Below are positions 18,947 to 56,232 of a stretch of DNA of 64,000 nt, in pieces (position 1 is the stretch's first letter; every line of letters starts with the position of its first letter). The DNA comes from a phage: assembly GCA_028030915.1 (NCBI GenBank), contig GCA_028030915.1_4867.1. One strand, written 5' to 3'. The notes beneath the pieces were generated by a model that did no database searches, was not told where the DNA came from, and saw nothing but the letters and a program-made list of their open reading frames with translations. The translations under genes were made by a program, and so were the position numbers.

Positions 18947-18968
18947 CAGAAAACGTTCGGAGTATTAA

Positions 18969-19856: not shown

Positions 19857-19878
19857 AAATATACTGGAGCAACCTGCA

Positions 19879-23348: not shown

Positions 23349-23371
23349 TTAGAAACTACTAAGTTGTTTTG

Positions 23372-23899: not shown

Positions 23900-24022
23900 G
23901 GTTGTTTCCTTATAGTAGGTTTGTGGTGCATACTAAATCGTTCTAAAAACAACATAGTGGGCTTAATATGACAGTAAAGTTGGCTGTTAAACGAGAAAGT
24001 TTTTACCACTGAAAGGTACTCT

Positions 24023-24514: not shown

Positions 24515-24516
24515 TG

Positions 24517-24560
24517 CTTACCCACTCCCGTAAGGGGAGTGGGTAAGGGCTTTATTTACC
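24517..24560 (+). terminator. rho-independent terminator
   Basis: 13-bp stem cttacccactccc / ggggagtgggtaag followed by ggctttattta. Confidence 0.6.
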
Positions 24561-24639
24561 CTCTAAAACGCTCTGTAACGCTCTCTAAGCGCATTAAACG
24601 TATCAAATGATAAATGATATTACTTTTGATTAAAGTGGA

Positions 24640-25155: not shown

Positions 25156-25164
25156 TTTCTCTCC

Positions 25165-26747: not shown

Positions 26748-26790
26748 TGGGTTATTCTCAGGCTTTAACCCCGTCAAGTTCCTCGTTAAA

Positions 26791-31383: not shown

Positions 31384-31386
31384 GTT

Positions 31387-32385
31387 TTACTCCACTAACT
31401 CGATAACGAATGCGTACAAACCGACCTTCTCAGCACTATCAACTAACGTAACTTGGGAGAGGTTACGTTTCGACGTATTGGTTATGCTTGAATCGATAGG
31501 CGCAGACCCGCGAACCAGAACTAATCCCGATTCAGGATCACGTTCTTGGCACAAGAAACCTTTGCCTTGGTAAGCGCTACCGCTCCCATAAATGGACGCT
31601 GGACTAATATTAGTCCAGTTAGGGAGCATTTGTTTGTTAGGGATACATTCTCCGAACGGATAAACAAAATCGTTATATTCGCAGCGACCATATTCCAAGT
31701 CATCATGGTCTGCGTTTCGCAACGATTCATCCAATGTCATTACTGTCGGTTCGTCCCCGTCGGTTAAACCGCGCAGCAATCGCATCCGATAGGTGTCGCC
31801 TTGCCATTCAAACAACCCACTCTGGTCAACACCTGCCAAATCCCCACGTCCGTTATCAGGACCAAATCCATCAACACCGTACACAAGCCCCGCGTTATAA
31901 ATGTCATTCCACGAGTAAAGTGTAGAGTTAAATCGTCCGCCGCTGTTCATCATGTAGTAAACTTTACCATGACGATAAAACTTGTTCATGATTAGCGTGC
32001 CCGTGCCCGATATCCCTGTTAATGCACGAAAGCCTGCAGGCAACGCGTCATAGGTCATCTGTTCTTCGAACGGCAACTGCCCCAGAAACGCCAAGTCGTC
32101 AGTATCGGAATAGTTAATCTGGTCGACGCCACCCACACCACGACGGTTTTTAATGACAATGGATTTTTGTGGACTACCTACGGTACGACCGTTAACAGTT
32201 ACTGTTAAAAGATACCAGTAACGGGTGTTAAGAATAACGGTTTCGTCCGTCCATTCCGTTTCGCCATTACTTAAAGTTGCAATAGGGGCTGGTAATGCGG
32301 CTGTATTTATTTTAGCCGTGCCCCGATAAATGTTAACAATTGAACCTGCCGGATTTTCATTTTTCCAGCGTAGTGTGAAAGCCAT
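31387..32385 (-). CDS. module protein B3 (FN3-like N-terminus plus shared domain), 332 aa
   Basis: MAFTLRWKN...VNIYRG...YWYLLTVTVNG; paralog of B1 and B2. Confidence 0.65.
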   Translation of the reverse strand: MAFTLRWKNENPAGSIVNIYRGTAKINTAALPAPIATLSNGETEWTDETVILNTRYWYLLTVTVNGRTVGSPQKSIVIKNRRGVGGVDQINYSDTDDLAFLGQLPFEEQMTYDALPAGFRALTGISGTGTLIMNKFYRHGKVYYMMNSGGRFNSTLYSWNDIYNAGLVYGVDGFGPDNGRGDLAGVDQSGLFEWQGDTYRMRLLRGLTDGDEPTVMTLDESLRNADHDDLEYGRCEYNDFVYPFGECIPNKQMLPNWTNISPASIYGSGSAYQGKGFLCQERDPESGLVLVRGSAPIDSSITNTSKRNLSQVTLVDSAEKVGLYAFVIELVE

Positions 32386-32395
32386 CTGTTACTCC

Positions 32396-33838
32396 TTAGA
32401 AGCCGTTCAACTCACCGTTCGCGGTTGCTAAATCTGTTTTAAGTGGAGGTTCTGCCTGAGTAGGCGGTAGTGGACGCGGTGCGTCGACGTGTGGTTCAAG
32501 TACAACCATCGGCCTAACTGTACCTACGCTCTTCGACACTGTCGATAACGGCAGCGCAGTATCGACGTTTGGTTCACCCACCACAATCGGGCTGATAGGT
32601 TCTTCCACCTGTTCCGCAGTTGTTGCTAGAGGTCTCGGCGCATCTGTTGTCGCAACCTCGACTGCAAGAGGGCGAATGCTATCAGGTTGTGGTGATGGTA
32701 CATTAGGAATAACCCTAACGCGCCACACAACATCCCCTTCCACATCAGCTAAAGGTAAGACGATGTCGTCCTTATTGATTTCCTCTAAAACAGGCCACCA
32801 GTAAGTGGTATCTGCAAGGGTTACCCATTCAACTGAGCCACCGCGCATATTGCAACGTTGTACTTTAACAGGGTTACCCCCGGTTAACAGTTGTTGCGTG
32901 AAGAAGACGGTGGTTCTGGTTAACGTGGTGTCATTTGCCCAGTCGCCACCCGTAGAACCGTCACCGAGTTGTGAAATAAGCCACAACGGCGTGGCCTTTG
33001 ATAAATCAGGGCTAACCGGAACGGAGACGCGGTAATAATGCGTCTTGTTATTCTCAGTTTTCGTGACAATCAAAGCCTGGTCAACAGGTTCGATACCGTC
33101 TGGATACGGACCAGCGTCACCTGTACCGAAAATGGCACCCGCTTGATAAAGGGCCGTCCAGGTTGCTGTTAACGTTCCGGTAGTCGGTAGATAAACAATC
33201 TTACCATCCTTGAAAAATTTCAACCACTCGAAAGTCATTTTCGTTGGGGCAATATCAGGACGAATTAGGTTGTTTAGTTCAGCAAAGGTAAATAACTCTT
33301 GCTGAGAAACGTGGCCGAAGTATCCGTTTGTGCTGTCCCCTGCCAACAGATATTTATTGCCTGGCCCAGAATCTGGATAGTACCTTACGGCTTCATTCAA
33401 ATAATCGACCGGGATATAGCCGCGATAGCATACGCTATTATACGCGGTTAAATTAATACGTGTTGGCGTTGCCAGCGATTTGATAGGCGCGTCTACCGAC
33501 TGTACACTGCTATCAGATAACCAAACACCGTATAAATCGCGTAGAGCTGGGAGAAGATCCCGCACGGTCTTGGCCGTTTGTGGTACGTAGACGCGCGGAG
33601 CTATTTTAAATAGATCTGATAATGTTAAACGGTCGTAATAGACCGTTATTTCCCCAGAGAATCCTTTACCGGGTTTACCTACCAACGTAATCACCGTGTT
33701 ACGACCATTCTTAGTGGTCTCGGCAGGAATACCCCTCACCCCAATCGAATCAGCACTGATTCGACCTGCGAGTTCAGGGTTATCCCTTACAACCTGTTGG
33801 CAGAGCAGTTCCAGTTCGGGTGCGCTATACAATCCCAT
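32396..33838 (-). CDS. module protein A3 (family N-terminal domain, central GPG/GYFG domain, C-terminal xPRPL repeats plus NGELNGF tag), 480 aa
   Basis: N-terminus nearly identical to A2 (MGLYSAPELELLCQQVVRDNPELAGRIS...ITVYYDRLTLSDLF); ends ...ATANGELNGF. Confidence 0.65.
   Translation of the reverse strand: MGLYSAPELELLCQQVVRDNPELAGRISADSIGVRGIPAETTKNGRNTVITLVGKPGKGFSGEITVYYDRLTLSDLFKIAPRVYVPQTAKTVRDLLPALRDLYGVWLSDSSVQSVDAPIKSLATPTRINLTAYNSVCYRGYIPVDYLNEAVRYYPDSGPGNKYLLAGDSTNGYFGHVSQQELFTFAELNNLIRPDIAPTKMTFEWLKFFKDGKIVYLPTTGTLTATWTALYQAGAIFGTGDAGPYPDGIEPVDQALIVTKTENNKTHYYRVSVPVSPDLSKATPLWLISQLGDGSTGGDWANDTTLTRTTVFFTQQLLTGGNPVKVQRCNMRGGSVEWVTLADTTYWWPVLEEINKDDIVLPLADVEGDVVWRVRVIPNVPSPQPDSIRPLAVEVATTDAPRPLATTAEQVEEPISPIVVGEPNVDTALPLSTVSKSVGTVRPMVVLEPHVDAPRPLPPTQAEPPLKTDLATANGELNGF
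33605..33838. repeat. nucleotide-level repeat (A3 5' region) shared with A2
   Basis: about 230 nt visibly near-identical to 37015..37247 (ggtcgtaata..ccgttatttccccag..tcctttaccgggtt..cctaccaacgtaatc..ttggcagagcagttcca..). Confidence 0.6.
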
Positions 33839-33849
33839 GAAGTCTCCTG

Positions 33850-34749
33850 TTAAGGCAGAACGAGTTCAAGTACCGCAATAGAGCGTATTGTAGCGGTACC
33901 GTAGTTACCCCATAACGGCGACTCTGGGTAGGGTGGACGGTTGTACCACTGAGCGGACAAGTTAACCATAGCCGCAAAGAATGCAGATTGTTGGGCAGTA
34001 ACCGAATCGATTGAACCGACCGGAAGGTCGTCAAAGCGCGGAAACTGCCCACTGTAGTTGTACAGGCGCGCGAAGGTGTTAAACCACTCACCGTCGAGAT
34101 ACAACTCGGTGTTACCGCTTCCAACGAAAGACGTCCAGTATTTGTAGTCGAACAAATACGGCAAGCGCACCACGTATTCGTAACCGTTTTTCGTCACCGT
34201 GCGGCGTTGGTTACGTGCACTAGCCCAGCTCGGCACATATCCGTTGCCATCCTGGCCGTACATCAGCCCCTGGTTATAAATGAACTGCGGGCTAGCGTAT
34301 ATTATCGAGTTATCGGACATAAACAGAATACGGTTTTTGTAAATGAACTTATGCCAGGCACCAACGGCGGAACTGAACATATTCACCACGAGGCTGTTCA
34401 GTTCCGCGTTAGTGAATAACTCTGCTGGCGTTACTGTTCCAAAGTATCCGGCGTGCCAGTCGCCGTATAACAGTTTCTGGGGGCCAGGCCCGGTGTCTAA
34501 AAAGAACCCTTGGGCGGTAGGGGTGTTGAAGACACGCTCACCGTCTTTAACCGCAGCTATCCAATAACGGTAAGTGGTGTTGTTTTCCACAGCGTTGTCT
34601 TCGTACGATGTAGCGTCACCCGGAAGGGTTGCCAGAGGCGTTCCCGGTGCATTAACATCAATGGTGGCGTTGCCCGGCGTCTTGCGATAGATTTCAATGT
34701 TATCGAGCGCCTGTGGCTTCCGTTGTGCAAAGTTTAATGTAATAGGCAT
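33850..34749 (-). CDS. module protein C2, about 299 aa
   Basis: start refined to ATG 34749 (gagga SD; listed start is TTG 34785); MPITLNFAQ...IEIYRK...YRYWIAAVKD; TGPGPQKLLYGDWHAGYFGTVTPAELF. Confidence 0.65.
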   Translation of the reverse strand: MPITLNFAQRKPQALDNIEIYRKTPGNATIDVNAPGTPLATLPGDATSYEDNAVENNTTYRYWIAAVKDGERVFNTPTAQGFFLDTGPGPQKLLYGDWHAGYFGTVTPAELFTNAELNSLVVNMFSSAVGAWHKFIYKNRILFMSDNSIIYASPQFIYNQGLMYGQDGNGYVPSWASARNQRRTVTKNGYEYVVRLPYLFDYKYWTSFVGSGNTELYLDGEWFNTFARLYNYSGQFPRFDDLPVGSIDSVTAQQSAFFAAMVNLSAQWYNRPPYPESPLWGNYGTATIRSIAVLELVLP

Positions 34750-34751
34750 GA

Positions 34752-35738
34752 TTAATCCTCGATAAGCTCGATTACTGGAATCCAAATACCGCCGGTCGCA
34801 CCAGGGACATGTTGTATACGCTGGAGGTTATCCACAGTATCAGTGGAATCCGCCGCCGCCCATCCGCGCGTCAGCCCCAACTTACTGTCTGGGTCAAACT
34901 CCTGACAATGCGCCCCACGGCCTGCCACCAGCGATCCACTTCCGAATATGCTGGTGTTCGACCACTTTATCAGGGACATCACTTTTTTCTTTTCTGGGAA
35001 CCAGCTACTTATCCCATAGATGAGTCGGTTGTATTCGCTATCGGCAGTATACGGCGACTCGTCATGGAGTTTACCGTTCCACTGTGCGTCGAGTGTCATG
35101 ACCGGGCTTTCACTGTCGAGCGTTAACCCGCGCAGCAGGCGCATCCGATAGCGGTCACCCAACCACGTAAACTCCCCAGCCTGGTCAACGTCAGGTAAAT
35201 CACCATGACCGCCTTCCGGACCAGGTCCCGCCACACCGTACAGCAAACCCGCGTTATAAATCGCATCACGGCTATACAGCGTGTTGCCGTTCACACGAAG
35301 ACCACTAAACAGATACAGAATTTTACCGTCTAGCTGGAACTTCATCAAGCCCGGCTTAACAGTTGGGTCGTATCCAGAAAGGGCCACAAACCCTGGCGGA
35401 TAATCACCCGCGCTAGGTAATTCACCGTACGCCACGTACCCGTAATACGCAAAGCGGTCATCACCGTACTGTGGAGCCACGATGCCGATACCGCGACGGT
35501 TCTGAATCAGAATTGATTTCTGCGGACTGAACAGTGTCCGACTTCCCACTGTCACGGTGGTCATGTAGTAATACGTTGTCCCCAGTATCGCTGTTCGGTC
35601 AGTATACTCAGTTTCCCCGTTAGTGAACGTTGCCAGGGGTTCAGGTAATGCCGTACGCACCAGAGGTTTGGTGTCGCGGTACAGCTTCACGGTCGAAGCC
35701 CCAGAGTTATTGTTCGTCCAACGAATTGTAAAAGCCAT
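34752..35738 (-). CDS. module protein B2, 328 aa
   Basis: MAFTIRWTNNNSGASTVKLYRD...YYYMTTVTVGS. Confidence 0.65.
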   Translation of the reverse strand: MAFTIRWTNNNSGASTVKLYRDTKPLVRTALPEPLATFTNGETEYTDRTAILGTTYYYMTTVTVGSRTLFSPQKSILIQNRRGIGIVAPQYGDDRFAYYGYVAYGELPSAGDYPPGFVALSGYDPTVKPGLMKFQLDGKILYLFSGLRVNGNTLYSRDAIYNAGLLYGVAGPGPEGGHGDLPDVDQAGEFTWLGDRYRMRLLRGLTLDSESPVMTLDAQWNGKLHDESPYTADSEYNRLIYGISSWFPEKKKVMSLIKWSNTSIFGSGSLVAGRGAHCQEFDPDSKLGLTRGWAAADSTDTVDNLQRIQHVPGATGGIWIPVIELIED

Positions 35739-35750
35739 TGTCGTTACCTC

Positions 35751-37247
35751 TTATTGGAATCCATCCAACTCACCGTTAGTATCGCCCAGAGTAATTTTTG
35801 AAGGTTGGGCGATTTGGTCAGTCGTGAGAATAATCGGTCTAATCTTAACGCTAGCCATGCCTGTTACCGCGACGGAATATGCACGTTCATCATTGTCCGT
35901 CGTGGCAAGCAGAGGACGTGGTGAGTCTGATGACGCTTCCCGTACCCAGGCAGGGGTGGCAGTTTCGGTGTTGTCGGTGTTGAAAACTAACGGACGTGGA
36001 TTCGCTGCGGCGGAGGTTTCCGTAATAGGCACCACACGAAGAGATTCATTTTGGTCGATGTCCGTCAGAGTAACCACGGACGGTGCCCATGTTAATTCTG
36101 CACCTTCGTCAATCAACGGCACAGGTTCATTGGCAACATCAAACATCTCCAAGATTGGCCAAAAGCCAGAAGAGGTGTAGATGTAGGTGTATGAACGATA
36201 GCTCCCACTGATAGACTGGTAATACGCTTGGTCGGCACCGAACTGGTGTCGTAACCACACGTAATCCAGGAAGTTAGCATCAGTCGTGCTAAGAGTTCCC
36301 CACTCCCCATATACGTTCACCGACCCCAATTTGCTGGTCAGTGACAGGATAGAGGTGATTGACGGCGGTTTACTCCAATCAGGCGCGGCGGCGTTCTCGG
36401 TGTAATACGGGATAGACATTCTGAAATAATGCGTTCCTTCATCATCCCGTTTTACCATGTATTTCAACTGTTCAACATCGACAGGTGTGTAAGTCGACTT
36501 CGGGCGAGGTCCTGCGTCTCCGGAATCAAATATTGCACCCTTGTTGTACAGGTCTGCCCAGGTAACGTTGCAAATCGCACGGGTCGGAACAAACACTACC
36601 GCCCCATTCAGAAAGAATTTGAGCCACTTGATAGCGTAGCGGTTAGGCCAGTTGGTGCCGTTATAGAGGGCATACACCATTTCATCAGATGTGAATAACT
36701 CTTCCGCGCTTACCAGCCCAAAGAATCCGTATAACTCATTACCGGCCATTAATCCTTTTGGCCCAGGGCCCGACTTCGGATACATCGCAATCGGTTCGTA
36801 AACATAGGTCATCTTGCATGACCCGGTATAACACAAGGAGTTAGCGTGCGCCGTCAGAGTTACAGTTTCCGGCGTAGCGTATTTCATTAATGCAACGTTT
36901 GGACTGGTGATGTCACTCGCGGTTAAGTTCAACCCGTTCAATTCATTGAACGCCGGTAACGCTTCCGCATGGGTTTGTGCGCTACGTGGAATACTCACCA
37001 TATTCGGGCCAGACTTAAATAGACTGGCCAGATTCAACCGGTCGTAATATACCGTTATTTCCCCAGCAAATCCTTTACCGGGTTTTCCTACCAACGTAAT
37101 CTGAGTGTTTCGTCCGTTAACGTTTTTCGCAACAGGAACACCCCTGACCCCAATGGAGTCAGGGGTGATTTTTCCTGCTAAACCGGGATTGTCACGCACA
37201 ATTTGTTGGCAGAGCAGTTCCATTGAAGGTTCTGTATACAACCCCAT
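35751..37247 (-). CDS. module protein A2, 498 aa, C-terminal NGELDGF tag
   Basis: MGLYTEPSMELLCQQIVRDNPGLAGKIT...ITVYYDRLNLASLF; xPRPL repeats; ends ...GDTNGELDGFQ. Confidence 0.65.
   Translation of the reverse strand: MGLYTEPSMELLCQQIVRDNPGLAGKITPDSIGVRGVPVAKNVNGRNTQITLVGKPGKGFAGEITVYYDRLNLASLFKSGPNMVSIPRSAQTHAEALPAFNELNGLNLTASDITSPNVALMKYATPETVTLTAHANSLCYTGSCKMTYVYEPIAMYPKSGPGPKGLMAGNELYGFFGLVSAEELFTSDEMVYALYNGTNWPNRYAIKWLKFFLNGAVVFVPTRAICNVTWADLYNKGAIFDSGDAGPRPKSTYTPVDVEQLKYMVKRDDEGTHYFRMSIPYYTENAAAPDWSKPPSITSILSLTSKLGSVNVYGEWGTLSTTDANFLDYVWLRHQFGADQAYYQSISGSYRSYTYIYTSSGFWPILEMFDVANEPVPLIDEGAELTWAPSVVTLTDIDQNESLRVVPITETSAAANPRPLVFNTDNTETATPAWVREASSDSPRPLLATTDNDERAYSVAVTGMASVKIRPIILTTDQIAQPSKITLGDTNGELDGFQ
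37015..37247. repeat. nucleotide-level repeat (A2 5' region) shared with A3
   Basis: see 33605..33838. Confidence 0.6.
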
Positions 37248-37260
37248 GGTATTTACTCCA

Positions 37261-38184
37261 TTACGGTAAGACTAATTCAAAAGCAAAGAATATCGTGGCC
37301 GAGTTCCCGACACCTGCGGTGTTACTAATCCCCATAGGCACGGTGCCATACGCATAAGCGAATATGTTGTTGCTCCACAAAGGAGCTAATACAGCGGCAC
37401 CTGACTCATTCGGCTGCGCAGTCGCGCCTTGTCTTTCAAGTGAGTCAATCGCACCAAGACCGAGGGCTGCGTACTGTGCACCGACAGGATACAAACGGCC
37501 CATTGTGTTTCGCCATTCACCGTTGTTGTAATCCTGTCCTGAGAGTGCCGCGTCGTACGGGACTGCGTAAGGTAATCGGATACGGTACGTACGACCATCC
37601 TTCGTGACCTTACAATCTTGTTTAGTCGCCGTGGCTCCCTGCGGAACAATACTTCCGACATCATCGGTCCCGTACATCATGCCGTACTGATACGCCATTT
37701 GTACCGAGTTGCTTTTCGAATGCATCGTCGCTGGGAAGAAGACAATTCGCCCACGGAAAATAAACTTGTGCCATTCCTGAGGGTCGTAAGTAAACATGTT
37801 TCCCTGCTGCGCGGTTAACATGAGTTTTAACTCGGCAGTATTAAAGAACTCGGTATTAGATACCGTACCGAAATAGCCTGACGCCCAATCGCCACGCAAA
37901 ATAGTTTGTGGCCCCGGTCCAGTGTCCGGATAGAACCCTTGCGTAATCGGATTGCCGATAAGTCGTTCATTATCTTTCACAGCAGCTACCCAGTAACGAT
38001 AAGTTGTATTCTTCGTCAGGGTATCGATATTATCTACGAACTCTACCGCGCTACCGGATAAGGTGGCGTGGGGTGTGCCTGGGTTGTAAACGTCGATTGT
38101 TGCGTTCCATCCTTCCTTGCGGTAGATTTCAATCGCGGTAAGACCTTTGCTGGCTTGGGACGGCCAGCTTAACCGTATAGTCAT
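37261..38184 (-). CDS. module protein C1, 307 aa
   Basis: MTIRLSWPSQ...IEIYRKEG...YRYWVAAVKD; TGPGPQTILRGDWASGYFGTVSNTEFF. Confidence 0.65.
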   Translation of the reverse strand: MTIRLSWPSQASKGLTAIEIYRKEGWNATIDVYNPGTPHATLSGSAVEFVDNIDTLTKNTTYRYWVAAVKDNERLIGNPITQGFYPDTGPGPQTILRGDWASGYFGTVSNTEFFNTAELKLMLTAQQGNMFTYDPQEWHKFIFRGRIVFFPATMHSKSNSVQMAYQYGMMYGTDDVGSIVPQGATATKQDCKVTKDGRTYRIRLPYAVPYDAALSGQDYNNGEWRNTMGRLYPVGAQYAALGLGAIDSLERQGATAQPNESGAAVLAPLWSNNIFAYAYGTVPMGISNTAGVGNSATIFFAFELVLP

Positions 38185-38193
38185 GACTGCCCC

Positions 38194-39192
38194 TTACTCG
38201 ACCAGTTCAAAGATAGGGTAGTAGCGCCCTTTCGTGGTGGGTGATAAATAGTTTATACGCTGAATCGTGGATACGGGTGTTCCACCGGCATTGTTAAAAA
38301 TACCACGATGGAGCACACGGTCTTCCGCGGTGTCGTGTTCCATACAGAGAACACCACCGCCGAAATACTGTGCCAAGGTTCCCAAAGTACCCTGCCCCAG
38401 AAAAGTATAACTGTTCGTTGCCCAGTTAGCCCAACGCTGTTTCCACGGCACCTCGTTAACCATCGTGTAAAGTAAATCGTTATACTCACACGGGTTGGTT
38501 AGAGAAGCGATTTCATCGTGGGTTTTCCCATTGTAGTCAGCTACGAAAGGATACGCAGGAGACTCGCTAGACGTCGTCAGGCCGCGAGGAAGACGCATAA
38601 TGTACGTATCCCCTTTGTGGACTATCTTAGCGTCTTGTGGAGTGGCTGGTAGCGTTCCATGGCCGTTCTCTGGGCCAGCATCGCCTGTACCATAGACTAA
38701 ACCAGCTTGATAGAGGGAAGCCCAGTCCACAGGCGTATTCGGGAACTGCGACGTGCTAGATAGCATGTAATAGATCTTCCCGTTTCGGGTAAATTTATAC
38801 AACGCCACACGATCGGTTAGTAGGTTAGGGAACATCGCCAAAAATGCAGGTGGCATTTGCGACGGAAGCCACTGTTCGTCGTAAGGAACCGCACCCATAA
38901 ACCCTAAACGGTCGTCACCGTTTAGAATAGTCATTGGACCGATCCCACGCTTTATCTCAATGGTGTATTTCTGGCTAGACGATGCCACTGTTTTACCGTT
39001 GGCGGTTACCGTCAGAAGGTAATAATAGGTTGCGCCTGGTGTGGCGGTGGTATCACGCCATTCTGTCTCGCCATTTGAGAGCGTTGCAATCGGTTCAGGC
39101 AAAGCGCTTGGTGTGATATCTTTAACATCACGGTAGATTTTTACTACCGTAGGGATTACGTTTGGATTTTTCCAACGCAAAGTAAAAGACAT
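38194..39192 (-). CDS. module protein B1, 332 aa
   Basis: MSFTLRWKNPNVIPTVVKIYRD...YYYLLTVTANG. Confidence 0.65.
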   Translation of the reverse strand: MSFTLRWKNPNVIPTVVKIYRDVKDITPSALPEPIATLSNGETEWRDTTATPGATYYYLLTVTANGKTVASSSQKYTIEIKRGIGPMTILNGDDRLGFMGAVPYDEQWLPSQMPPAFLAMFPNLLTDRVALYKFTRNGKIYYMLSSTSQFPNTPVDWASLYQAGLVYGTGDAGPENGHGTLPATPQDAKIVHKGDTYIMRLPRGLTTSSESPAYPFVADYNGKTHDEIASLTNPCEYNDLLYTMVNEVPWKQRWANWATNSYTFLGQGTLGTLAQYFGGGVLCMEHDTAEDRVLHRGIFNNAGGTPVSTIQRINYLSPTTKGRYYPIFELVE

Positions 39193-39203
39193 AGATGATA
39201 CCT

Positions 39204-40616
39204 CTACTTAAAGCCGTCCAGTTCACCGTTAAGAGACGTTAACGTTGTCTTGTCAGGGGGCGTATACATTTCAGCGGCGGCTGCAATAGGTTGGAAGTCG
39301 ACTGTCTTCGGCAGCATTAAAGCAGGCGGATGCAGTGCGAAACTGTTTTCTGAAGTAACAACTACCGGTTCGAAATCGGTAGTATCCGGATTACCGAGCA
39401 CTAACGGCTTGAGACTAAATGTGTTTTCTGCGGACACGCTGCACGGTTGGAGACTGTAATCTACCGCACCATGGATATCTTCTAAACCCAAGGTAACTGT
39501 GGACTTATCCACCAACTCCAGCACCGGGAACCAGTAGTAGTTGCCCGCACTCGATGATTTTTCTAAGTTTGTCCAACTGGCTCCAGACAACGTCGCCATG
39601 CGATGATTGGCGACGTTGGTGTTCAGTGTATCTTTCAATAAACAGAACAGCGACCAGTAACTGTTAATCGGTTTGTCCCACGTTCCATTATACAGAAAGT
39701 TGAACATCTCAAACTCACTACCTGCTAACTCAGCGGCAGTTGGGGTGCCGCTGACATATGGGTCCTTCCCAGCACTAGGTAGACGAACGCGGAAGTAAAA
39801 CCTTTTATTGTCTGCGCCTGTAAAGCTAATGATGCGTCCCTGGTTAACGGGCGTCGCCGCAGGGTATTTACCATTATCGTCTGTTCCGTAAACGAGTCCG
39901 TTTGTATATAACGTATTCCAGGAGATGGAGCCAGCGACAGGACTGATCGGGAGGTAAATAACCCTACCCTGGTAAAAGAACTTGTACCAACCTTCGGCAC
40001 CAGAATGTACCGGTGGTAACGCACCGGCCGATATAGTGGCATTAAGAAGTTGAGAGTGTGTAAACAACTCTGCAGTTCTGGTTGTTCCGAAATAACCCGC
40101 GATAGTGTTACCTTGCAGCAACGTTTTAGGGCCAGGTCCAGAATCGGGGTAAATTGCACCACTCGGGACGGTATAACGTATCGTTAAGCTGCCTGTAAAC
40201 GCAGGGCAATTGCCTGAGATATTTAATTTCAACGTCTGCGGCGAAACGCTCGGTTTAGGTAAACTTGCGTCAGGTGACTGCAAATCAGAAGCAACTAATG
40301 TAAGCCCCAATGCGTCGTTTATTGCAGGTAGCGCGTCTCGTACCGTTAAGACTGTATCTTTGATAGCCACAGTCGGCACAAAATTAAATAAAGTGGCCAG
40401 GTTAATCCGGTCGTAGTACACGGTAACATTACCTTGTACACCTGTCCCTGGATACCCGGTGAAAACAGCTTTGGTGTTACGTTGGTTTAACGTAACTGAG
40501 GTTGGGCCACCGGTTAAAGCAGCGATAGCCGGCGTCAACTTAACAACTAAATCAGGGTTATCCCGATTGACTTGGTCGTATACAAGCAGTGCCGACTCCT
40601 TCGAGTAAAATAGCAT
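39204..40616 (-). CDS. module protein A1, 470 aa, C-terminal NGELDGF tag
   Basis: MLFYSKESALLVYDQVNRDNPDL...NVTVYYDRINLATLF; YPDSGPGPKTLLQGNTIAGYFGTTRTAELF; ends ...TSLNGELDGFK. Confidence 0.65.
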   Translation of the reverse strand: MLFYSKESALLVYDQVNRDNPDLVVKLTPAIAALTGGPTSVTLNQRNTKAVFTGYPGTGVQGNVTVYYDRINLATLFNFVPTVAIKDTVLTVRDALPAINDALGLTLVASDLQSPDASLPKPSVSPQTLKLNISGNCPAFTGSLTIRYTVPSGAIYPDSGPGPKTLLQGNTIAGYFGTTRTAELFTHSQLLNATISAGALPPVHSGAEGWYKFFYQGRVIYLPISPVAGSISWNTLYTNGLVYGTDDNGKYPAATPVNQGRIISFTGADNKRFYFRVRLPSAGKDPYVSGTPTAAELAGSEFEMFNFLYNGTWDKPINSYWSLFCLLKDTLNTNVANHRMATLSGASWTNLEKSSSAGNYYWFPVLELVDKSTVTLGLEDIHGAVDYSLQPCSVSAENTFSLKPLVLGNPDTTDFEPVVVTSENSFALHPPALMLPKTVDFQPIAAAAEMYTPPDKTTLTSLNGELDGFK

Positions 40617-40630: not shown

Positions 40631-40660
40631 GCCAAAAGATGGGGCTCCGAAGAGCCCCTA
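40631..40660 (-). terminator. hairpin with short T-run (weak terminator)
   Basis: - strand ggggctcttcggagcccc followed by atctttt; between 40664..41494 and A1. Confidence 0.4.
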
Positions 40661-40663: not shown

Positions 40664-41494
40664 TTAGCTGTTATAGTGGTAGTACGCCACACCTTTCACG
40701 CCGTCTTCATCAATACCCGTTTGGATAACCACACGGTCGTACGATTTGTTAGCGAACTGAGCGGTGGATGTCGGCACATCCTGAACGGTGTTACTGTTCA
40801 GTGGCCCCGCGTAGTTCGGAATACCCAGGTCATCCAACACCTTACGCAAACCAGCCCACTGCGGTAGGCCAGAAGCATCTACTGCCAGTAGGTTTTTATA
40901 CGCGGTAAAGTCAATACCGTACGTCAACAGGTCGATGCACTTCTTACCGAGAGACGGTGAAATAGGCTCTTGAATCGCATTCAAGACATCCGATTTCACC
41001 GAAGTGTCTAGTACCGGTAAACCACGGTTATAACGCAACGTCGCAGAACCGATATAAGCCGGAGATGTCGATAGCGCTGCAATGGTCTGTGTATTGGTGT
41101 AATTTGGGGTATTGGCACCAAACAGTGAGTAGTTTTGGATATCGATTGCGGAGAAGTTTACTCCGTAGGTATCCAAGAGCACCGAAAAGGCTGAGTGGAG
41201 GTTGGGTGCGTCAAACGTGACGAACTGCGCCTGGACGGAAGGCCCCCACGGCAATAACCGCGCTAAGTTCACACGGTCGTAGTAAACGGTGATTGCGTCT
41301 CGAAATCCAGAACCCTGAATACCGCGCAAGCGTGCCGACGTATTGCGGTTGTTGGAAGCTGCATTAACGGGAACCTGTGTCACTTTCTCCACGTAGCAGT
41401 TTGCCGGCGACGCTTTAATAGGCAGGTTTGGGTTATCCCGGTTAATGAGGTCAAAGACCAACTCGTTTGACGGCTTAGCATAGTTGATCATCAA
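40664..41494 (-). CDS. paralog-family protein (about 280-aa class), 276 aa
   Basis: N-terminal family domain (...LINRDNPNL...ITVYYDRVNLARLL); C-terminus ...AYYHYNS. Confidence 0.6.
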   Translation of the reverse strand: MMINYAKPSNELVFDLINRDNPNLPIKASPANCYVEKVTQVPVNAASNNRNTSARLRGIQGSGFRDAITVYYDRVNLARLLPWGPSVQAQFVTFDAPNLHSAFSVLLDTYGVNFSAIDIQNYSLFGANTPNYTNTQTIAALSTSPAYIGSATLRYNRGLPVLDTSVKSDVLNAIQEPISPSLGKKCIDLLTYGIDFTAYKNLLAVDASGLPQWAGLRKVLDDLGIPNYAGPLNSNTVQDVPTSTAQFANKSYDRVVIQTGIDEDGVKGVAYYHYNS

Positions 41495-42382
41495 TTATAC
41501 CTCGCTTGGATCGTCCAGATCGTTGAACTGGAGATACAACGTTCCGACGATGGTGGTACAGGTAACAGGCAGTTTCAACACCAGCGCATACTTGTACTTC
41601 GCGTTTGTCGGCATTGCAACAGGGTCATTCAGACCAACGCTGATAACCTCCGCGCCCGCCAAACCGTAGGAAGCGGAGGTGGTCGCTACCCATGCAGTAC
41701 CCGTAATATCTTTCAGCAGGTTAACCATATCCGTCAACGGCTGTCCGGACAGAATACCCGGCTTGTATGCCAGCAACTCATCACGGTATTTGGTGAAGTT
41801 GTACGGGTAGGAATAAACCTCTGCAATGACCGCAGTAACATTTTCGGAACCCATCTGACCGTTCGGGTATTTCAGACCGGTCAGGACGTTAGTGGTGACT
41901 GCAGAGACTAACGACTCATCGCCTTTCACGACTTTAAATGTCGCCTGTCCAACCCAACCGATAGACTCAGGATGTGCAACAACACGCACAGTTCCTTCAG
42001 TCTTATCACCGTTCCATTCGATATCTGCGTCCTGCAGGTCAGCTTCTTCCAGAACAAAACCGTAACGTTGGTTCAGTCCAGGAATGGCCGCATACAAGGT
42101 TTCGTTGGATGGGCCGATCGCCAACGTGTCACCAATCAGCACTAACAAGTCTTCGACTTTCATGCGGTTGTAGAAGACATTTTTCTTACCCGACCAGGTA
42201 GAGCCCGTTACTCCATCTGCCGTAATTTTAATTTGCGTGTTACGGTTAGTCAGCGTTTCCTTCTCCGTACCACGAATGTCCTTTGGCGTGGACCAGATGA
42301 TATCAGTCATCTTAACAGCAAGCGAGTTCTGTGCGTTCACTGCTGCCAACAGGACGTCTTTAGAAGGTTGATAAATAGCCAT
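41495..42382 (-). CDS. paralog-family protein, 295 aa
   Basis: MAIYQPSKDVLLAAVNAQNS...NVFYNRMKVEDLL; C-terminus ...LYLQFNDLDDPSEV. Confidence 0.6.
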   Translation of the reverse strand: MAIYQPSKDVLLAAVNAQNSLAVKMTDIIWSTPKDIRGTEKETLTNRNTQIKITADGVTGSTWSGKKNVFYNRMKVEDLLVLIGDTLAIGPSNETLYAAIPGLNQRYGFVLEEADLQDADIEWNGDKTEGTVRVVAHPESIGWVGQATFKVVKGDESLVSAVTTNVLTGLKYPNGQMGSENVTAVIAEVYSYPYNFTKYRDELLAYKPGILSGQPLTDMVNLLKDITGTAWVATTSASYGLAGAEVISVGLNDPVAMPTNAKYKYALVLKLPVTCTTIVGTLYLQFNDLDDPSEV

Positions 42383-42392
42383 TCGCTAATTC

Positions 42393-43232
42393 CTAGTTGT
42401 TGTAGTGCAACATACACTCGCCGATTACTTTCGGGTCGTTCTGAATGCCGGTAATCAGCAATACGTTATCGTACGCTTTATTGGCGGTCGCCAACTCACT
42501 CGTTTTGTAGCGGGTAATTGTGCAGTTCGTCGGATCAAACGACGGTACCCCACGTGCGACCAATGTGGCCATCAGATTGGACGTGTAACCCAAATCAAAG
42601 TTACTTCCTACGTCCATTCGCCCGTTCTTAAACGAGGCCATAACCTGCACTTCATCAGTAAAGTCTTCCCCGTACGTCAAGAAGCCCATGTATTTCTTAC
42701 CAGTGCTTGCTGCTGCAGGGTGGTTCAAAGCCGACAAGATGTCGTTTACCACGAGGTCTTCGAGGCTATTCTTACCCCGGATAGACATAAAGGTGATGCT
42801 GCCAGTGTATTGGATACAGCTAGCGTTAATGCGCATCGTGTTGTTTACGTTCAGATAAACGTATTGTTCTGGGATATCATCTGCGACCAGGTTTAACCCA
42901 TAACGACCGTTCAGGTTCTGCGCAAACGCAGTACGTTTCGACTCCACGTTCAACCAACCGTAGGCATTCGGTGCAGTTACCTGAGGTGTCATGTTCTTAA
43001 ATAAGTCGTTCAGCGACAAGCGCTTATAACGGAACGTCTGAGGACCGATATAGCCACGACCTTGACGACCACGAATGATAATCTCAGTATTGGCACCGCT
43101 TGCTGTCGGTGTGATTGCTTTCGGCGTACCGATGATAGCATTGTCTAAACCCATCGGTAGAACAGCATCCGGGTTTTCGGCATTAATCGCATCGTACAGA
43201 TATTGTCGCTGAGACAGACTATATAAAGCCAT
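42393..43232 (-). CDS. paralog-family protein, about 279 aa
   Basis: start refined to ATG 43232 (gaggagg SD; listed start is TTG 43250); ...DAINAENPDA...TFRYKRLSLNDLF; C-terminus ...MLHYNN. Confidence 0.6.
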   Translation of the reverse strand: MALYSLSQRQYLYDAINAENPDAVLPMGLDNAIIGTPKAITPTASGANTEIIIRGRQGRGYIGPQTFRYKRLSLNDLFKNMTPQVTAPNAYGWLNVESKRTAFAQNLNGRYGLNLVADDIPEQYVYLNVNNTMRINASCIQYTGSITFMSIRGKNSLEDLVVNDILSALNHPAAASTGKKYMGFLTYGEDFTDEVQVMASFKNGRMDVGSNFDLGYTSNLMATLVARGVPSFDPTNCTITRYKTSELATANKAYDNVLLITGIQNDPKVIGECMLHYNN

Positions 43233-43251
43233 AATAGCCTCCTCGGCCAAA

Positions 43252-43290
43252 AAAGAAAGGAGTAGCCAGGAGGAGGATTTCCTCCTCCCA
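43252..43290 (-). terminator. hairpin-type terminator between paralogs
   Basis: - strand ggaggagga-aat-cctcctcc followed by T-rich ctcctttcttttttgg. Confidence 0.45.
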
Positions 43291-43301
43291 GCGAGGCCTA
43301 A

Positions 43302-44213
43302 TTAGGCATTAAAATGCAGGTACATGACGCCCTGGAAGTTGGTGCACAGAGTGTCATCCAGCTGCAGCAGCAGAACCTGGTTGTAAGCAGTGTTTGCACC
43401 TTCAACCGGTTTCTTAGGATCGTCGCCTGAAGCAGTGCCATCGTCAGTAGTAGAACCAACGTACAACACGTTAGCACCTTTCAGGTTATAATCCGCAGGC
43501 TCATCAGATGCAACCCACAGTTCCGGCACAACTTTATTCAGCTCAACCGGGAATGCAGAGTCGCCAGCGATAACACCTTTCGCCTGTACTTTCAGGAATG
43601 CTGCGATTGCTGTGCAGTCTACACCGTAAGAGTAGATGTAGCCCTGACCCTTCGCTTCGCTTGGACCATCTGGGTAAACCAGGCCGTCGAGCTTGGTTTG
43701 TGTTACCACCAGACTCAGACGTTCACCAACCTGAGGCTTAGCACCGATTTTAACCGGGATGCTGCCCAGATATGCGTAGCAGTCTTCTTTGAAGGTAATG
43801 ACATGGTCAACCGGTGCTGGGTCCGGATCGTTCGGGTTAGTCAGCGGCGGGTTGGTATTTTCCGGAATAGCCGCCGGAACGATATCGTCTTCGGTCAGCT
43901 TCAATCCGTATTGGTTGTTCAGGGTCGTCAGCAGGTCTGTGGTGGTTTTCGGCAGTTTAACGTCGAGGTATGCTGTTACGTTACGGAACAGCGCACCGCC
44001 TTCCAGGCGATTATAAGTCACGTCCTGAGTACCGATGTACCCGGAGTTCTTTTTCGCAGTCAGGGTCATGCTGGTATTGCGATCGGCACCTTCGTCGACA
44101 ATAGGGGTCGGTGTGCCGAGCGTTATTTTAGAAAGTTCCAGTTCTGCGTCTGGGTTTTTCTCATTAATAAAATCCAGAACCAGCTGATCGGACGTTTTGT
44201 TTAAAGGTTTCAT
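43302..44213 (-). CDS. paralog-family protein, 303 aa
   Basis: ...LDFINEKNPDAEL...DVTYNRLEGGALF; C-terminus ...MYLHFNA. Confidence 0.6.
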   Translation of the reverse strand: MKPLNKTSDQLVLDFINEKNPDAELELSKITLGTPTPIVDEGADRNTSMTLTAKKNSGYIGTQDVTYNRLEGGALFRNVTAYLDVKLPKTTTDLLTTLNNQYGLKLTEDDIVPAAIPENTNPPLTNPNDPDPAPVDHVITFKEDCYAYLGSIPVKIGAKPQVGERLSLVVTQTKLDGLVYPDGPSEAKGQGYIYSYGVDCTAIAAFLKVQAKGVIAGDSAFPVELNKVVPELWVASDEPADYNLKGANVLYVGSTTDDGTASGDDPKKPVEGANTAYNQVLLLQLDDTLCTNFQGVMYLHFNA

Positions 44214-44234
44214 TCTTACTTCCTTTACTCAGGA

Positions 44235-45080
44235 TTAATCAGGGTCGTTGTAGTGCAAATACAAACGCCCGCCAAAATTCAGACAGTACAACGACAGCTC
44301 CACAATCAGCACGTTGTCGACTGCTGGGTTGGTTGGTAATTCCGCTTTGTTACGCCCGTTATAGACGACGACGGCTTCACGAAGGTTAAAGTCGATTGGG
44401 TTACGGTACGTTGTCCAGTTATCACCGGTGACCGTTTTGAGAATCTGTGCCAGACGTTCTGCGGTTATCGCAGCACCTAGTCGTTGAAATTCCTCCGCGA
44501 AATTATCAAAGCGCCAGGGATACGAATAAACTGCACCTTGACCGACCTTGATGTTAAAATACGGATACTCGTAAGGTGTTACTGTTAAGGGTTCGAAGTT
44601 TGCAGGAAGCAACGCATCGCCTGGTAACAGCTGTACCTGTTGTTGCCCTATCCAACCTAAAGAAGTGGGCGTGGCAATCAGATCCACACGCCATGTCTTC
44701 CTGTCGATTTCGGTATTCACCACATCTGCGGGTTTAAGGCTGAGACCGTAATACTGGTTAATTAACCCGACCACGTCATGCATCTGGTAAACAGCATCGA
44801 GACGTGCAGGAACACGTAAAGGTTGAATCCCGTCTGGGTCGGTAAACATGTCTGCGAAGTCAACACGATCGTAATACACGGTAGTGGCACCGATAGCATT
44901 AGCGGTGGCCAATGCCTGAATGCGCACCATCGCGTTATGACCATTGGCTTTTGCCAGGTCTTCGTCAGACGTCGGAATCGCAGGGACACCGAAAACCACA
45001 TCTTCGACTTTTAAATCGAGATTGTTTTCGACGTTAACCTCCGCGATAATAATCTTTTCAGCAGTGGCTAAAAGTGGCAT
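44235..45080 (-). CDS. paralog-family protein, 281 aa
   Basis: ...TTVYYDRVDFADMF; C-terminus ...LYLHYNDPD. Confidence 0.6.
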   Translation of the reverse strand: MPLLATAEKIIIAEVNVENNLDLKVEDVVFGVPAIPTSDEDLAKANGHNAMVRIQALATANAIGATTVYYDRVDFADMFTDPDGIQPLRVPARLDAVYQMHDVVGLINQYYGLSLKPADVVNTEIDRKTWRVDLIATPTSLGWIGQQQVQLLPGDALLPANFEPLTVTPYEYPYFNIKVGQGAVYSYPWRFDNFAEEFQRLGAAITAERLAQILKTVTGDNWTTYRNPIDFNLREAVVVYNGRNKAELPTNPAVDNVLIVELSLYCLNFGGRLYLHYNDPD

Positions 45081-45090
45081 GTCAAAATCC

Positions 45091-45933
45091 TTATATCGGG
45101 AGATAGTGAAGGATGAGATTACCGGCGTAGTTGCTGTCCGCAGCTAGCTTGATAATCGCCACACGCTGATAATCGGGGTTGTAACTATCGTTCGGTGTGA
45201 CTGAAGTTATCCCCATATATCGTGCACCTTGAAGCGCAATTTGTTCAGGTTGGGCAGTCGCCCCCGTCACATATGCAAACTTTAATGGCACCACTTCGTT
45301 AAGCAATTCAACATCCGCCGCGGTGATTGCGCGGTTGTAAGCCCAATCGGTAGTGAACTGTTTTTGCAGTTCAGTCCAATCGTAACCATACGCCACATAC
45401 TCAGCCTGTGGTTTACTAGCAACCACGAACGGCGCGATAATTGCGCTGAGGTCAACATCCGTCACCACGTCCGCCAAGTTCGGGAAGAACTTCGCAAAGC
45501 GTAAACGGAAACCACCTTGCCAGGCCAAGCAACCAGGCTTAATAGTCACATCGATTAACCAGCTTTCTCCCAAATCTTTTACTGACTGGTCAACGATATC
45601 GTCGGCAACTAAAGACAAGCCGTATTTCGCATTCAGAAACGGCAACAACTCAGAGAGTTTATTTACCGGGTCGGCAACGACTACCGGTATTACGTTCCTG
45701 AACAGAATTTCCATTTCGATACGGTCGTATTCGAGCGTAACGTTGCCTTTGTAGCCCTTGCCGTTCAACCCGTATAAGAGCACACGCGTATTCCGGTCAG
45801 CGCCAGGCGTTTGGACAGACTCAGGGAAGCCAGTTGCAACCTGCTCCCATGTGAGTGGATTGGCCGTTAATCCGTTCTGTCGGTTAATAGCATCTAACAA
45901 CATCTCTTTCGAGGGCTTATCGTAAATAGACAC
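45091..45933 (-). CDS. paralog-family protein, 280 aa
   Basis: ...LLDAINRQNGL...NVTLEYDRIEMEILF; C-terminus ...LILHYLPI. Confidence 0.6.
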   Translation of the reverse strand: MSIYDKPSKEMLLDAINRQNGLTANPLTWEQVATGFPESVQTPGADRNTRVLLYGLNGKGYKGNVTLEYDRIEMEILFRNVIPVVVADPVNKLSELLPFLNAKYGLSLVADDIVDQSVKDLGESWLIDVTIKPGCLAWQGGFRLRFAKFFPNLADVVTDVDLSAIIAPFVVASKPQAEYVAYGYDWTELQKQFTTDWAYNRAITAADVELLNEVVPLKFAYVTGATAQPEQIALQGARYMGITSVTPNDSYNPDYQRVAIIKLAADSNYAGNLILHYLPI

Positions 45934-45943
45934 CTATACCCTC

Positions 45944-46741
45944 CTAGTTGTTAAAGTGTAGGTTGAGGCTGCCCTGGAAGTTCGTACATTTATCGGTCAG
46001 TTGCACTGACACGACTTTCGCGAACGCCGTATTTGCTCCCGGCAAGTCTGCAGGTACGCCGTCGAATACGACAGTGGCACCACGCAGGTTATACGGGGAT
46101 GGGGTATCTTCAGCTACCCAAATCTCAGGAACACATTTGTTGAGTTCGATTGCCAACGCCGTGTCATCTACCTCGATACCGACCGCTAAGAGGCTCAGGA
46201 AACGAGAGATGTGGCTACAATCGATGTCACGCGAATAGATATACGCCTGACCCAACTGGATGTCCTGGTGATCCGGGTACAGAAGACCGCTCAACTCTGT
46301 ATTGGTTACTACTTCTGCCAGAGGTGTAGCAGGTTTCAGCTCGATGACCGCTTGACTTCGCCACTCGTGGGAAGTTTCAACAGCAACGACTGTGTGCGTC
46401 TGTCCATCAATGGGGTTATCTTCGATATCCTCAGGTAAGATAGACAGATTAAAACGCTCGTTAATCGCCGCGAGTAAGTCGTGCGTGGTTTGCACGTCCT
46501 CGTCTCCAAAGGCAACATCGCCTTTAAGGTAGTCCTCTAATGGACGACGATGGTAGTCCACAATCACTTGCGTACCTTCATCACCGCGCATCTTCGAGGT
46601 AAGGACTACCTCCGAATCACGACCGTCTACTGACACAACCTCCGGCAGTCCGATATCAACATCGTCAAAGGTAAGCGGTGGGCTTATCTTATTCTCTTCG
46701 TTGATGAGTTTTAGCAGATTCTGTTTTGAAGTAAAAGACAT
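45944..46741 (-). CDS. paralog-family protein, 265 aa (first gene of the array)
   Basis: ...LLKLINEENKIS...VIVDYHRRPLEDYL; C-terminus ...LNLHFNN. Confidence 0.6.
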   Translation of the reverse strand: MSFTSKQNLLKLINEENKISPPLTFDDVDIGLPEVVSVDGRDSEVVLTSKMRGDEGTQVIVDYHRRPLEDYLKGDVAFGDEDVQTTHDLLAAINERFNLSILPEDIEDNPIDGQTHTVVAVETSHEWRSQAVIELKPATPLAEVVTNTELSGLLYPDHQDIQLGQAYIYSRDIDCSHISRFLSLLAVGIEVDDTALAIELNKCVPEIWVAEDTPSPYNLRGATVVFDGVPADLPGANTAFAKVVSVQLTDKCTNFQGSLNLHFNN

Positions 46742-46839: not shown

Positions 46840-46892
46840 CAAACAAAAAAAGAAAAGGAAACAAAAAAGAAGGGGAGCCGAAGCTCCCTTTT
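46840..46892 (-). terminator. rho-independent terminator
   Basis: - strand aagggagcttcggctcccctt followed by cttttttgtttccttttcttttttt. Confidence 0.55.
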
Positions 46893-55761: not shown

Positions 55762-56232
55762 TTAGTATCCTGTTCCGCAAATGGCCCCTTTCCAGGTTGT
55801 GCCGCCATCCGTAGATGACAAAGACAACACATCCTCGGCGTCTAGCGTGTACGATAACGGAGGTTCTGCACCGTTAGGCCATTTAACCGAAGCCGGCCAG
55901 GTGATTTTGTTTGCACCGGTACCCTGACGTAGCGTCAGTAATAACTCATATCGCGTACCCGGAACCGGGTCGGTAATAGGTGTGATAGAAAGCGCAGTGG
56001 TGGGGTCACCTAAACGGATAATGAAGTCGTCCGCAATATTGGGATCTATTTCAACGATACCGTCAGCACCGGATAAGTTTTGGATAGGGTTTGCATCTGC
56101 CCCGCCGCCGATTTCACTGAGAGGAAGTTTGTACTCCTTTTCATCAACGCTAATAAGCGCTACTGCGCTCGACTTATCACCGTCGTAAGAATCGAGTTCA
56201 TGCAAACGTTTCTTTTTGACTACAGTTGCCAT
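55762..56232 (-). CDS. hypothetical protein (156 aa)
   Basis: ORF directly upstream of the 1005-aa gene. Confidence 0.5.
   Translation of the reverse strand: MATVVKKKRLHELDSYDGDKSSAVALISVDEKEYKLPLSEIGGGADANPIQNLSGADGIVEIDPNIADDFIIRLGDPTTALSITPITDPVPGTRYELLLTLRQGTGANKITWPASVKWPNGAEPPLSYTLDAEDVLSLSSTDGGTTWKGAICGTGY

Follow-up and report, generated by a model that had tools for sequence, protein, structure and literature searches.

The window analysed here, 64,000 nucleotides (nt) of phage DNA (contig GCA_028030915.1_4867.1 of assembly GCA_028030915.1), carries a tandem array of seven paralogous genes on its minus strand at 40664..46741. We found that the seven encode distinct, anciently diverged subunits of the DUF7941 family, each with a globular N-terminal domain (N-domain), a flexible linker, and a C-terminal domain (C-domain) that ends in LH[YF]N. 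The best-supported account of their role, and one that we modestly favor, is that they join head to tail into filaments that would capture the host. The window is that of an SPN3US-like jumbo phage, at 98-99% DNA identity: the 6,078-nt array is 99.3% identical to that of Salmonella phage SPLA5c and 98.3% identical, over its whole length, to that of SPN3US (Seoulvirus, 240 kb). The seven consecutive open reading frames (ORFs) of 265-303 amino acids (aa) described in a first-pass annotation are present as claimed. They are the orthologs of SPN3US_0138 to 0144 (gp138-gp144), with the same order and lengths as in SPN3US, whose records label them 'virion structural protein' or 'hypothetical protein'. 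The genes are as follows, with identities to Cronobacter phage CR5 where indicated.

45944..46741, minus strand: gp138 ortholog, 265 aa, full-length DUF7941, subfamily alpha, C-terminus LNLHFNN.
45091..45933, minus strand: gp139 ortholog, 280 aa from a GTG start, full-length DUF7941 (Pfam E 4.8e-71), subfamily beta, C-terminus LILHYLPI, 55% identical to CR5_135.
44235..45080, minus strand: gp140 ortholog, 281 aa, full-length DUF7941 (Pfam E 1.5e-79), subfamily gamma (placed with gp143 in the tree), C-terminus LYLHYNDPD, 58% identical to CR5_136.
43302..44213, minus strand: gp141 ortholog, 303 aa, full-length DUF7941 (Pfam E 2.7e-85), subfamily alpha, C-terminus MYLHFNA.
42393..43232, minus strand: gp142 ortholog, 279 aa from ATG 43232, full-length DUF7941 (Pfam E 3.2e-80), subfamily beta, C-terminus CMLHYNN, 40 ortholog clusters in the protein database.
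41495..42382, minus strand: gp143 ortholog, 295 aa, full-length DUF7941 (Pfam E 4.3e-82), subfamily gamma, C-terminus LYLQFNDLDDPSEV, 59% identical to CR5_141.
40664..41491, minus strand: gp144 ortholog, 275 aa from ATG 41491, full-length DUF7941 (Pfam E 4.7e-87), subfamily beta, C-terminus AYYHYNS, 62% identical to CR5_142.

The Shine-Dalgarno context favors the ATG start of the gp142 ortholog (GAGGAGG) over TTG 43250, and that of the gp144 ortholog over TTG 41494. For the gp139 ortholog, a perfect AGGAGG 7 nt upstream supports GTG 45933, and starting there restores the family N-terminal motif M.IY.KPSKE..L. The public SPN3US gp139 annotation (813 nt in RefSeq/GenBank), which begins 10 codons downstream of that GTG (window 45903-45933), is for these two reasons probably truncated. 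Two terminator-like hairpins, both identified by consensus scan only, bracket exactly the seven genes.

46873..46888, minus strand: GC-rich hairpin and T-run just upstream of the gp138 ortholog, closing the preceding unit.
40641..40658, minus strand: GC-rich hairpin and T-run just downstream of the gp144 ortholog.

The hairpin and T-run that follow the seventh gene suggest that the seven form one transcription unit. A sigma-70 promoter scan found 18 candidates where shuffled sequences predict 20.4, the consensus not being appropriate for these phages. Along the coding strand, the seven are followed by gp145-gp153 (three A/B/C triplets), gp154, gp155, an endolysin, and a DUF1353 protein that is a tail assembly chaperone according to RefSeq.

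The seven proteins are related along their entire length. In all-against-all BLASTP they share 23-35% identity, over the whole length in many pairs, with E down to 4e-45, and leave-one-out profiles built from any six recover the seventh full-length (E 3e-30 to 3e-56). All seven match Pfam PF25613 (DUF7941) with 229-292 bits (gathering cut-off 27 bits; E 1e-68 to 1e-87), from positions 1-5 to positions 274-276 of the 276-position model, and all match PHROG 1037, 'virion structural protein'. Their similarity is not due to low complexity, because 2,360 shuffled ORFs of the window never exceed 6.8 bits against a profile of the seven, compared with at least 27.5 bits for true members; the objection that the resemblance might be low-complexity or spurious, which the first-pass annotation had itself raised, fails on this control. 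That annotation had also confined the homology to an N-terminal domain followed by a divergent middle, and here it needs correction, as N-domain, linker, and C-domain are all homologous. The related C-terminal ending that it noticed is real: the seven carry G..L.LH[YF]N, with LQFN plus 8 aa and LHYLPI as variants, and an ending of this type is kept in the homologs of CR5 and Erwinia phage phiEaH2 and in gp33 of phage Goslar (LLMQYN). The profile likewise recovers the N-domain everywhere it had been proposed (each of the three A proteins and the outliers at 56232..56765 and 23372..23899), and adds two proteins, at 28983..30302 (gp154 ortholog) and 26791..28968 (gp155 ortholog, with two copies). 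The 'thirteen or more' family members suspected in 64 kb become 14 proteins with 15 N-domain modules. Seven of the 14 lie outside the array (three A proteins, gp154, gp155, gp122, and gp160) and match profile positions 1 to ~150 only.

We used AlphaFold2 (AF2) to model the gp138 ortholog from 66 sequences. The mean predicted local distance difference test score (pLDDT) is 90.8 and the predicted template modeling score is 0.56, which together indicate two domains that are each modeled with confidence but are not fixed relative to one another. In the model, a globular N-domain (residues ~1-140) and a globular C-domain (~165-265) flank a flexible linker that holds the sole low-confidence block, residues 151-160 (pLDDT 59). 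The LH[YF]N motif is part of the C-domain fold, since it forms the last strand of the model (258-263). Across the 66 homologs, P156 of the linker is invariant and L141 and L150 are nearly so; a linker that is conserved yet modeled with low confidence may be a segment that becomes ordered on a partner. The N-domain fold is shared with phiKZ gp127 (PDB 9XQD), a virion protein and the only solved member of the family.

A neighbor-joining tree divides the seven into three subfamilies: alpha (gp138 and gp141; 83%), beta (gp139, gp142, and gp144; 96%), and gamma (gp140 and gp143; 96%). The resulting array order, alpha-beta-gamma-alpha-beta-gamma-beta, points to a three-gene unit that was duplicated before the split between Seoulvirus and Derbicusvirus. 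All seven are paired 1:1 with orthologs in CR5 (Derbicusvirus), at 42-62% identity and with bootstrap values of 96-100%, as against the 23-35% that separates the paralogs. The CR5 array (17481-25464 of the locus sequence) comprises nine full-length genes in tandem and repeats the same subfamily series with two extra genes inserted; CR5 also has one gene resembling gp154, one resembling gp155, and a single A/B/C triplet. phiEaH2 has seven array genes and three triplets, and no gp154 or gp155 ortholog was found at its locus. The alpha-beta-gamma periodicity of the array mirrors that of the adjoining A/B/C triplets.

The array itself is comparatively well conserved. For the seven, identity is 57-80% to phiEaH2 and 43-62% to CR5, whereas triplet proteins share only 30-54% with their counterparts, and gp154 and gp155 share 49% and 39% with those of CR5. 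Such a difference between the conserved seven and the fast-changing triplets, gp154, and gp155 would fit a constant shaft with variable tips. Because phiEaH2 has an exopolysaccharide (EPS) depolymerase and lacks gp154 and gp155, host-interaction genes around the conserved array appear to have been swapped between hosts. The depolymerase gene (G173_gp058, 19708-21525 of the locus sequence) lies immediately upstream of the phiEaH2 array, and a search of its product for a DUF7941 N-domain found none.

Beyond these relatives, tblastn with the gp141 ortholog retrieved 111 phage records, and each one listed is 197-307 kb long. Among the phage records listed, DUF7941 is restricted to phiKZ-like (chimallivirus-type) jumbo phages, a restriction also claimed in a recent preprint on Goslar (bioRxiv 10.64898/2026.04.21.720040). 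The breadth of the family is visible only by exhaustive search. While a word-indexed homolog search with the seven-protein profile returned almost exclusively gp138 and gp142 orthologs, exhaustive HMMER comparison of the 15 window N-domains with 1.84 billion representative proteins gave 3,427 matches, 1,704 of them at E <= 1e-10. We counted N-domains in 145 chains from the top 150: one copy is present in 75, two in 50, three in 16, four in 2, and two further chains carry eight and nine. Because tandem copies (2-9) are common in single chains, the N-domain module is evidently one that nature strings together like beads. Of the 35 longest matches, 34 match DUF7941 and 6 contain a GP38 tail-fiber adhesin. 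Other domains fused in this set are ConA/laminin-G lectins, BNR/sialidase, immunoglobulin (Ig), SPRY, cadherin-like, and DUF285 domains, as well as arabinofuranosidase and 3-keto-disaccharide hydrolase. These partners are extracellular binding or glycan-acting modules, and they support an external, binding role for the family.

Two related systems provide the structural precedent. Goslar has ten DUF7941 proteins, which together exceed 2,500 copies per virion; ~580 and ~2,140 copies are estimated for two of the ten (bioRxiv 10.64898/2026.04.21.720040). In the same work, AlphaFold3 models predict head-to-tail oligomers in which linker and C-domain dock on the next N-domain, purified gp22 forms filaments in negative stain, DUF7941 is found fused to carbohydrate-binding, glycoside-hydrolase, and leucine-rich repeat domains, and a 'DUF7941 fibre cloud' radiating from the baseplate is proposed to serve host recognition; SPN3US is unmentioned (bioRxiv 10.64898/2026.04.21.720040). 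Goslar gp22, gp23, gp31, gp33, and gp34 belong to the same Pfam family and have the same N-domain/linker/C-domain architecture as the seven. The profile of the seven aligns full-length with three of them, gp34, gp33, and gp31 (E 1e-43, 6e-42, and 2e-27), although their identity to the seven is only 20-33%. Like the window, Goslar encodes some family members that have the N-domain only and others that are fused to host-binding domains. The two phages differ in that Goslar has three full-length genes at the one locus examined, compared with seven here, and encodes the abundant gp22 and gp23 elsewhere. phiKZ has only 2-3 family members. Its gp127 (PDB 9XQD) lies in the outer peripheral baseplate, where one copy caps the gp139-dimer band at the tip of each of six star lobes (Nat Commun 2026, PMC13250141). 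It is ~17-18% identical to the seven, is present at 6 copies per virion, and has been modeled for residues 1-150 only.

From these comparisons we infer polymerization, an external position, and a role in host capture for the seven. The linker and C-domain of one subunit would dock on the N-domain of the next, giving a head-to-tail polymer, and long flexible hetero-filaments would extend on the virion exterior. The seven conserved full-length paralogs would form the shaft, and the N-domain-only relatives (A proteins, gp154, gp155, gp160, and gp122) could plug into the filaments via their N-domains. Variable binding modules carried by these plug-in relatives, such as the gp38-type adhesin domain of gp155, would then capture the host surface. 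In SPN3US-type phages, most of such a network appears to be anchored at the head or neck, while gp237 and gp122 may belong to it on the tail side.

The location of the proteins on the particle was assessed with published SPN3US proteomics, in which summed peptide-spectrum matches (PSMs) were obtained for twice-CsCl-purified wild-type virions and for tailless heads of the tail-tube mutant 255(am107). All of gp138-gp144 are detected together in the purified virions, at 200-2,239 PSMs, a roughly 11-fold range. The counts in virions and tailless heads, respectively, are 282 and 292 for gp138, 234 and 249 for gp139, 200 and 174 for gp140, 2,239 (the highest of the seven) and 2,297 for gp141, 377 and 376 for gp142, 1,038 and 1,156 for gp143, and 447 and 432 for gp144. 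When PSMs per kDa are calibrated on the capsid protein, with its 1,615 copies, they correspond to ~390 copies of gp141, ~185 of gp143, 35-85 for each of the other five, and ~535 of gp160, which is very abundant at 1,750 PSMs in wild-type virions; these estimates are rough and only as good as spectral counting.

The first-pass annotation had proposed 'interchangeable virion subunits'. The second half of that phrase stands for the SPN3US orthologs, which mass spectrometry places in virions, and the first does not: the seven are not interchangeable, because each has its own 1:1 ortholog in CR5. It is very improbable that they are redundant or mutually exclusive variants of which one is used at a time. 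Copy number does differ across related phages, a comparison that the annotation had called for (seven genes and three triplets here, nine and one in CR5, three at one locus in Goslar, two to three in phiKZ). However, all seven occur in one virion preparation, each represents an ancient lineage conserved on its own, with a 1:1 counterpart in phiEaH2 as well as CR5, and the array, with a hairpin at either end, has the look of a single unit. Nor does it contain inverted repeats or long direct matches by which genes could be switched, the only matches at the DNA level being short and motif-coding. The seven thus appear to be separate subunits that assemble together, not substitutes for one another. 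The idea does survive in one respect, as a head-to-tail co-polymer would let different paralogs take equivalent positions in a filament.

Several observations weigh against host-capture filaments, above all in the form proposed for Goslar. The normalized head/wild-type ratios of gp138-144 are 1.22-1.56, compared with 1.39 for the major capsid protein and <0.07 for tail proteins, and gp145-155 and gp160 likewise stay on tailless heads; gp138-155 and gp160 together span 1.1-1.7, apart from gp155, which has a ratio of 0.89 and is classed as a head protein in the SPN3US proteomics. The seven are also found in DNA-full heads, and their ratio is lower in protease-null prohead preparations with tails and debris. 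These tailless-head data contradict a purely baseplate-anchored fiber and are compatible with an internal location. Furthermore, we found no recognizable binding domain in the seven, and cryo-electron microscopy density for the bulk of DUF7941 proteins has been assigned in no phage (bioRxiv 10.64898/2026.04.21.720040).

An internal location, with the seven inside the capsid as ejection proteins or vertex 'antler' complexes that act after injection or in head assembly, strikes us as unlikely. The SPN3US group classes all of them as head proteins from two different tailless mutants, their head/wild-type ratios equal that of the capsid protein, and they are present in prohead-like preparations. 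The same authors tentatively labeled gp141 and gp160 'Head ejection?' (PMC5694885) and, in supplementary material, 'antler' or '?antler', antlers being internal densities under the vertices. The antler label for family members is probably superseded, as the internal vertex complex of phiKZ and Goslar consists of other, identified proteins. None of the seven is among the 8-9 SPN3US proteins cut by the prohead protease, and none matches Pfam PF12699, which we took as the mark of the protease-processed internal head/ejection protein type. phiKZ gp127, the only family member located structurally, is outside the particle, on the baseplate; the long filaments formed by Goslar gp22 also speak against a place inside the capsid, and the fusions of family members to adhesin, lectin, sialidase, and Ig-type domains make sense only outside it.

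A fiber cloud confined to the baseplate would instead have filaments emanate from six peripheral-baseplate sites, as in Goslar, and the head signal in SPN3US would come from co-purified free or entangled filaments. Consistent with this, the outer baseplate lobes of phiKZ carry gp127 and a fitted gp126 at their tip, the closest Goslar homologs (gp31, gp33, and gp34) are interleaved with the peripheral-baseplate gene gp32, and two SPN3US family members follow the tail, namely gp237 (ratio 0.06) and gp122 (22 PSMs in wild-type virions, none in tailless heads). The array also lies near tail and baseplate genes: the window encodes the tail proteins gp122-124 as well as gp168-170, which are large tail/baseplate paralogs. 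Yet CsCl-purified tailless heads keep gp138-155 at the whole-virion proportion to capsid protein, and chance co-purification is not expected to preserve stoichiometry for about 20 proteins; we regard confinement to the baseplate as quite unlikely. Whereas the Goslar model anchors filaments on the baseplate, the SPN3US proteomics puts the seven on tailless heads, and since they stay there at capsid-protein proportion, attachment to the head or neck is favored over the baseplate alone.

More speculatively, and with considerable doubt, the preferred host-capture filaments of SPN3US-type phages might, instead of a baseplate fiber, take the form of a 'hairy' network anchored at the head or neck, with the seven shaft subunits arranged as repeated alpha-beta-gamma triplets, joined by N-domain-only subunits with class-specific C-terminal tags (NGELDGF, ELVE, and ELVLP) and variable adhesins. 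Such a network, if real, would be a new modular, self-polymerizing host-recognition organelle on the phage capsid, and the proteomics of SPN3US and the filaments of Goslar would no longer be in conflict. SPN3US-type phages have roughly 80 virion proteins, and about 20 of these are part of the network. Should they form self-assembling host-capture filaments, adsorption and host range in the jumbo phages under development against Salmonella, Erwinia, and Cronobacter would depend to a major and overlooked degree on them, and engineering would best target the variable N-domain-only members, gp155 first among them.

The family as such is already known, since what we rediscovered in a near-identical phage is the published SPN3US 'paralog family B' (Thomas et al. 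2016, PMC5105663; Ali et al. 2017, PMC5694885). Its array genes are the same genes, with no biological difference. Family B was given 20 members (gps 83, 138-154, 160/161, and 237, with gp122 as a candidate) and ranges from 2 in phiKZ to 20 in SPN3US (PMC5694885); the count was later raised to 21 (Scheuch et al. 2023, PMC10052503). It was defined by PSI-BLAST and is now held in Pfam as DUF7941, but it is broader than the Pfam family in that it includes B and C proteins that have no DUF7941 match, while it leaves out gp155 despite the two N-domains of that protein. The SPN3US papers propose no function for it beyond 'head' and 'head ejection?'. What may be new is the tie between SPN3US family B and the DUF7941 filament model, in which two data sets disagree on location, together with the alpha-beta-gamma organization, the class-specific C-termini, and the gp38-type adhesin architecture of gp155.

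The N-domain relatives in the window are encoded as follows.

30481..40616, minus strand: three A/B/C triplets, gp145-gp153 orthologs, delimited by profile, Pfam, and a BLASTP domain network.
28983..30302, minus strand: gp154 ortholog, DUF7941 N-domain followed by a second, weaker match, and a C-terminal domain that gp155 has as well.
26791..28968, minus strand: gp155 ortholog, 725 aa, DUF7941 N-domain in two tandem copies, gp38-type domain (~370-555), and the C-terminal domain.
23372..23899, minus strand: gp160 ortholog, 175 aa, DUF7941 N-domain (Pfam E 3.5e-11), C-terminus NGELDGFV.
56232..56765, minus strand: gp122 ortholog, N-domain-only DUF7941 (Pfam E 7.3e-18, hidden Markov model (HMM) positions 4-152), adjoining gp123 and gp124.

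The A proteins consist of a DUF7941 N-domain, to which the profile of the seven aligns over HMM positions 1-143 only, a domain common to the B and C proteins, and the C-terminus NGELDGF. B proteins end in ELVE and C proteins in ELVLP; neither has a DUF7941 match in Pfam, and they are linked to the family only via the domain shared with the A proteins. These class-specific C-termini are kept in CR5 and phiEaH2 (window 23372-23899 and 30481-40616, minus strand): A proteins and gp160 terminate in L(S/T)xxNGEL(D/N)GF(K/Q/V), B proteins in (I/F)EL(V/I)E, C proteins in ELVLP/S, and gp154 and gp155 in PxPW.... Judged by their sequences, they look like docking or assembly tags.

The gp155 ortholog, annotated only as 'hypothetical protein', is a strong candidate for a receptor-binding protein of SPN3US-type phages, because it joins two DUF7941 N-domains to a gp38-type receptor-binding domain. 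Pfam identifies DUF7941 in two stretches (E 3.4e-23) and GP38 (E 5.7e-18), and its PDB sequence matches are 6F45_D and 9v85 (S16 and PP01 gp38). Its AF2 model (pLDDT 78.7, with loop regions of low confidence) retrieves in Foldseek the PP01 gp38 receptor-binding domain (9v85, E 2e-8) and phiKZ gp127 (E 6.8e-5), so that Pfam and Foldseek agree on a glycine-rich receptor-binding domain of gp38 type. Compared with chain C of PP01 gp38, the model has a template modeling score of 0.60 at 25% identity. The setting differs from that in T-even phages, where gp38 caps the long tail fiber gp37, as the gp38-type domain of gp155 sits behind two DUF7941 N-domains; it is absent from the seven array genes.

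The gp155 ortholog ends in KKSLS, and the next in-frame codons read FNEELDGVKA* (window ~26755-26793, minus strand). Homologs elsewhere (P0079, P0082, P0089, and CR5_144) continue to NGELDGFK, indicating that the C-terminal tag of gp155 is cut by an in-frame stop. The same stop is present in the 98%-identical cluster representative P0078, and the tag beyond it may be either a decayed remnant or a read-through site. In the records of SPFM5, 8, 10, 12, and 20 (LR5359xx; proteins P0083-P0088), gp155 is matched only as blocks of ~20 residues in reversed order, which looks as if 60-nt lines had been reversed, an artifact of the deposited sequences rather than biology.

A tRNA search of the window found none. 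Three very large paralogous ORFs of 1,237, 1,376, and 1,742 aa, which are without a Pfam match, are the counterparts of the SPN3US 'paralog family C', the tail fiber/baseplate proteins gp170-168. Together with two adjoining radical-SAM proteins, they occupy window 3466-16601 (plus strand) and 19843-22114.

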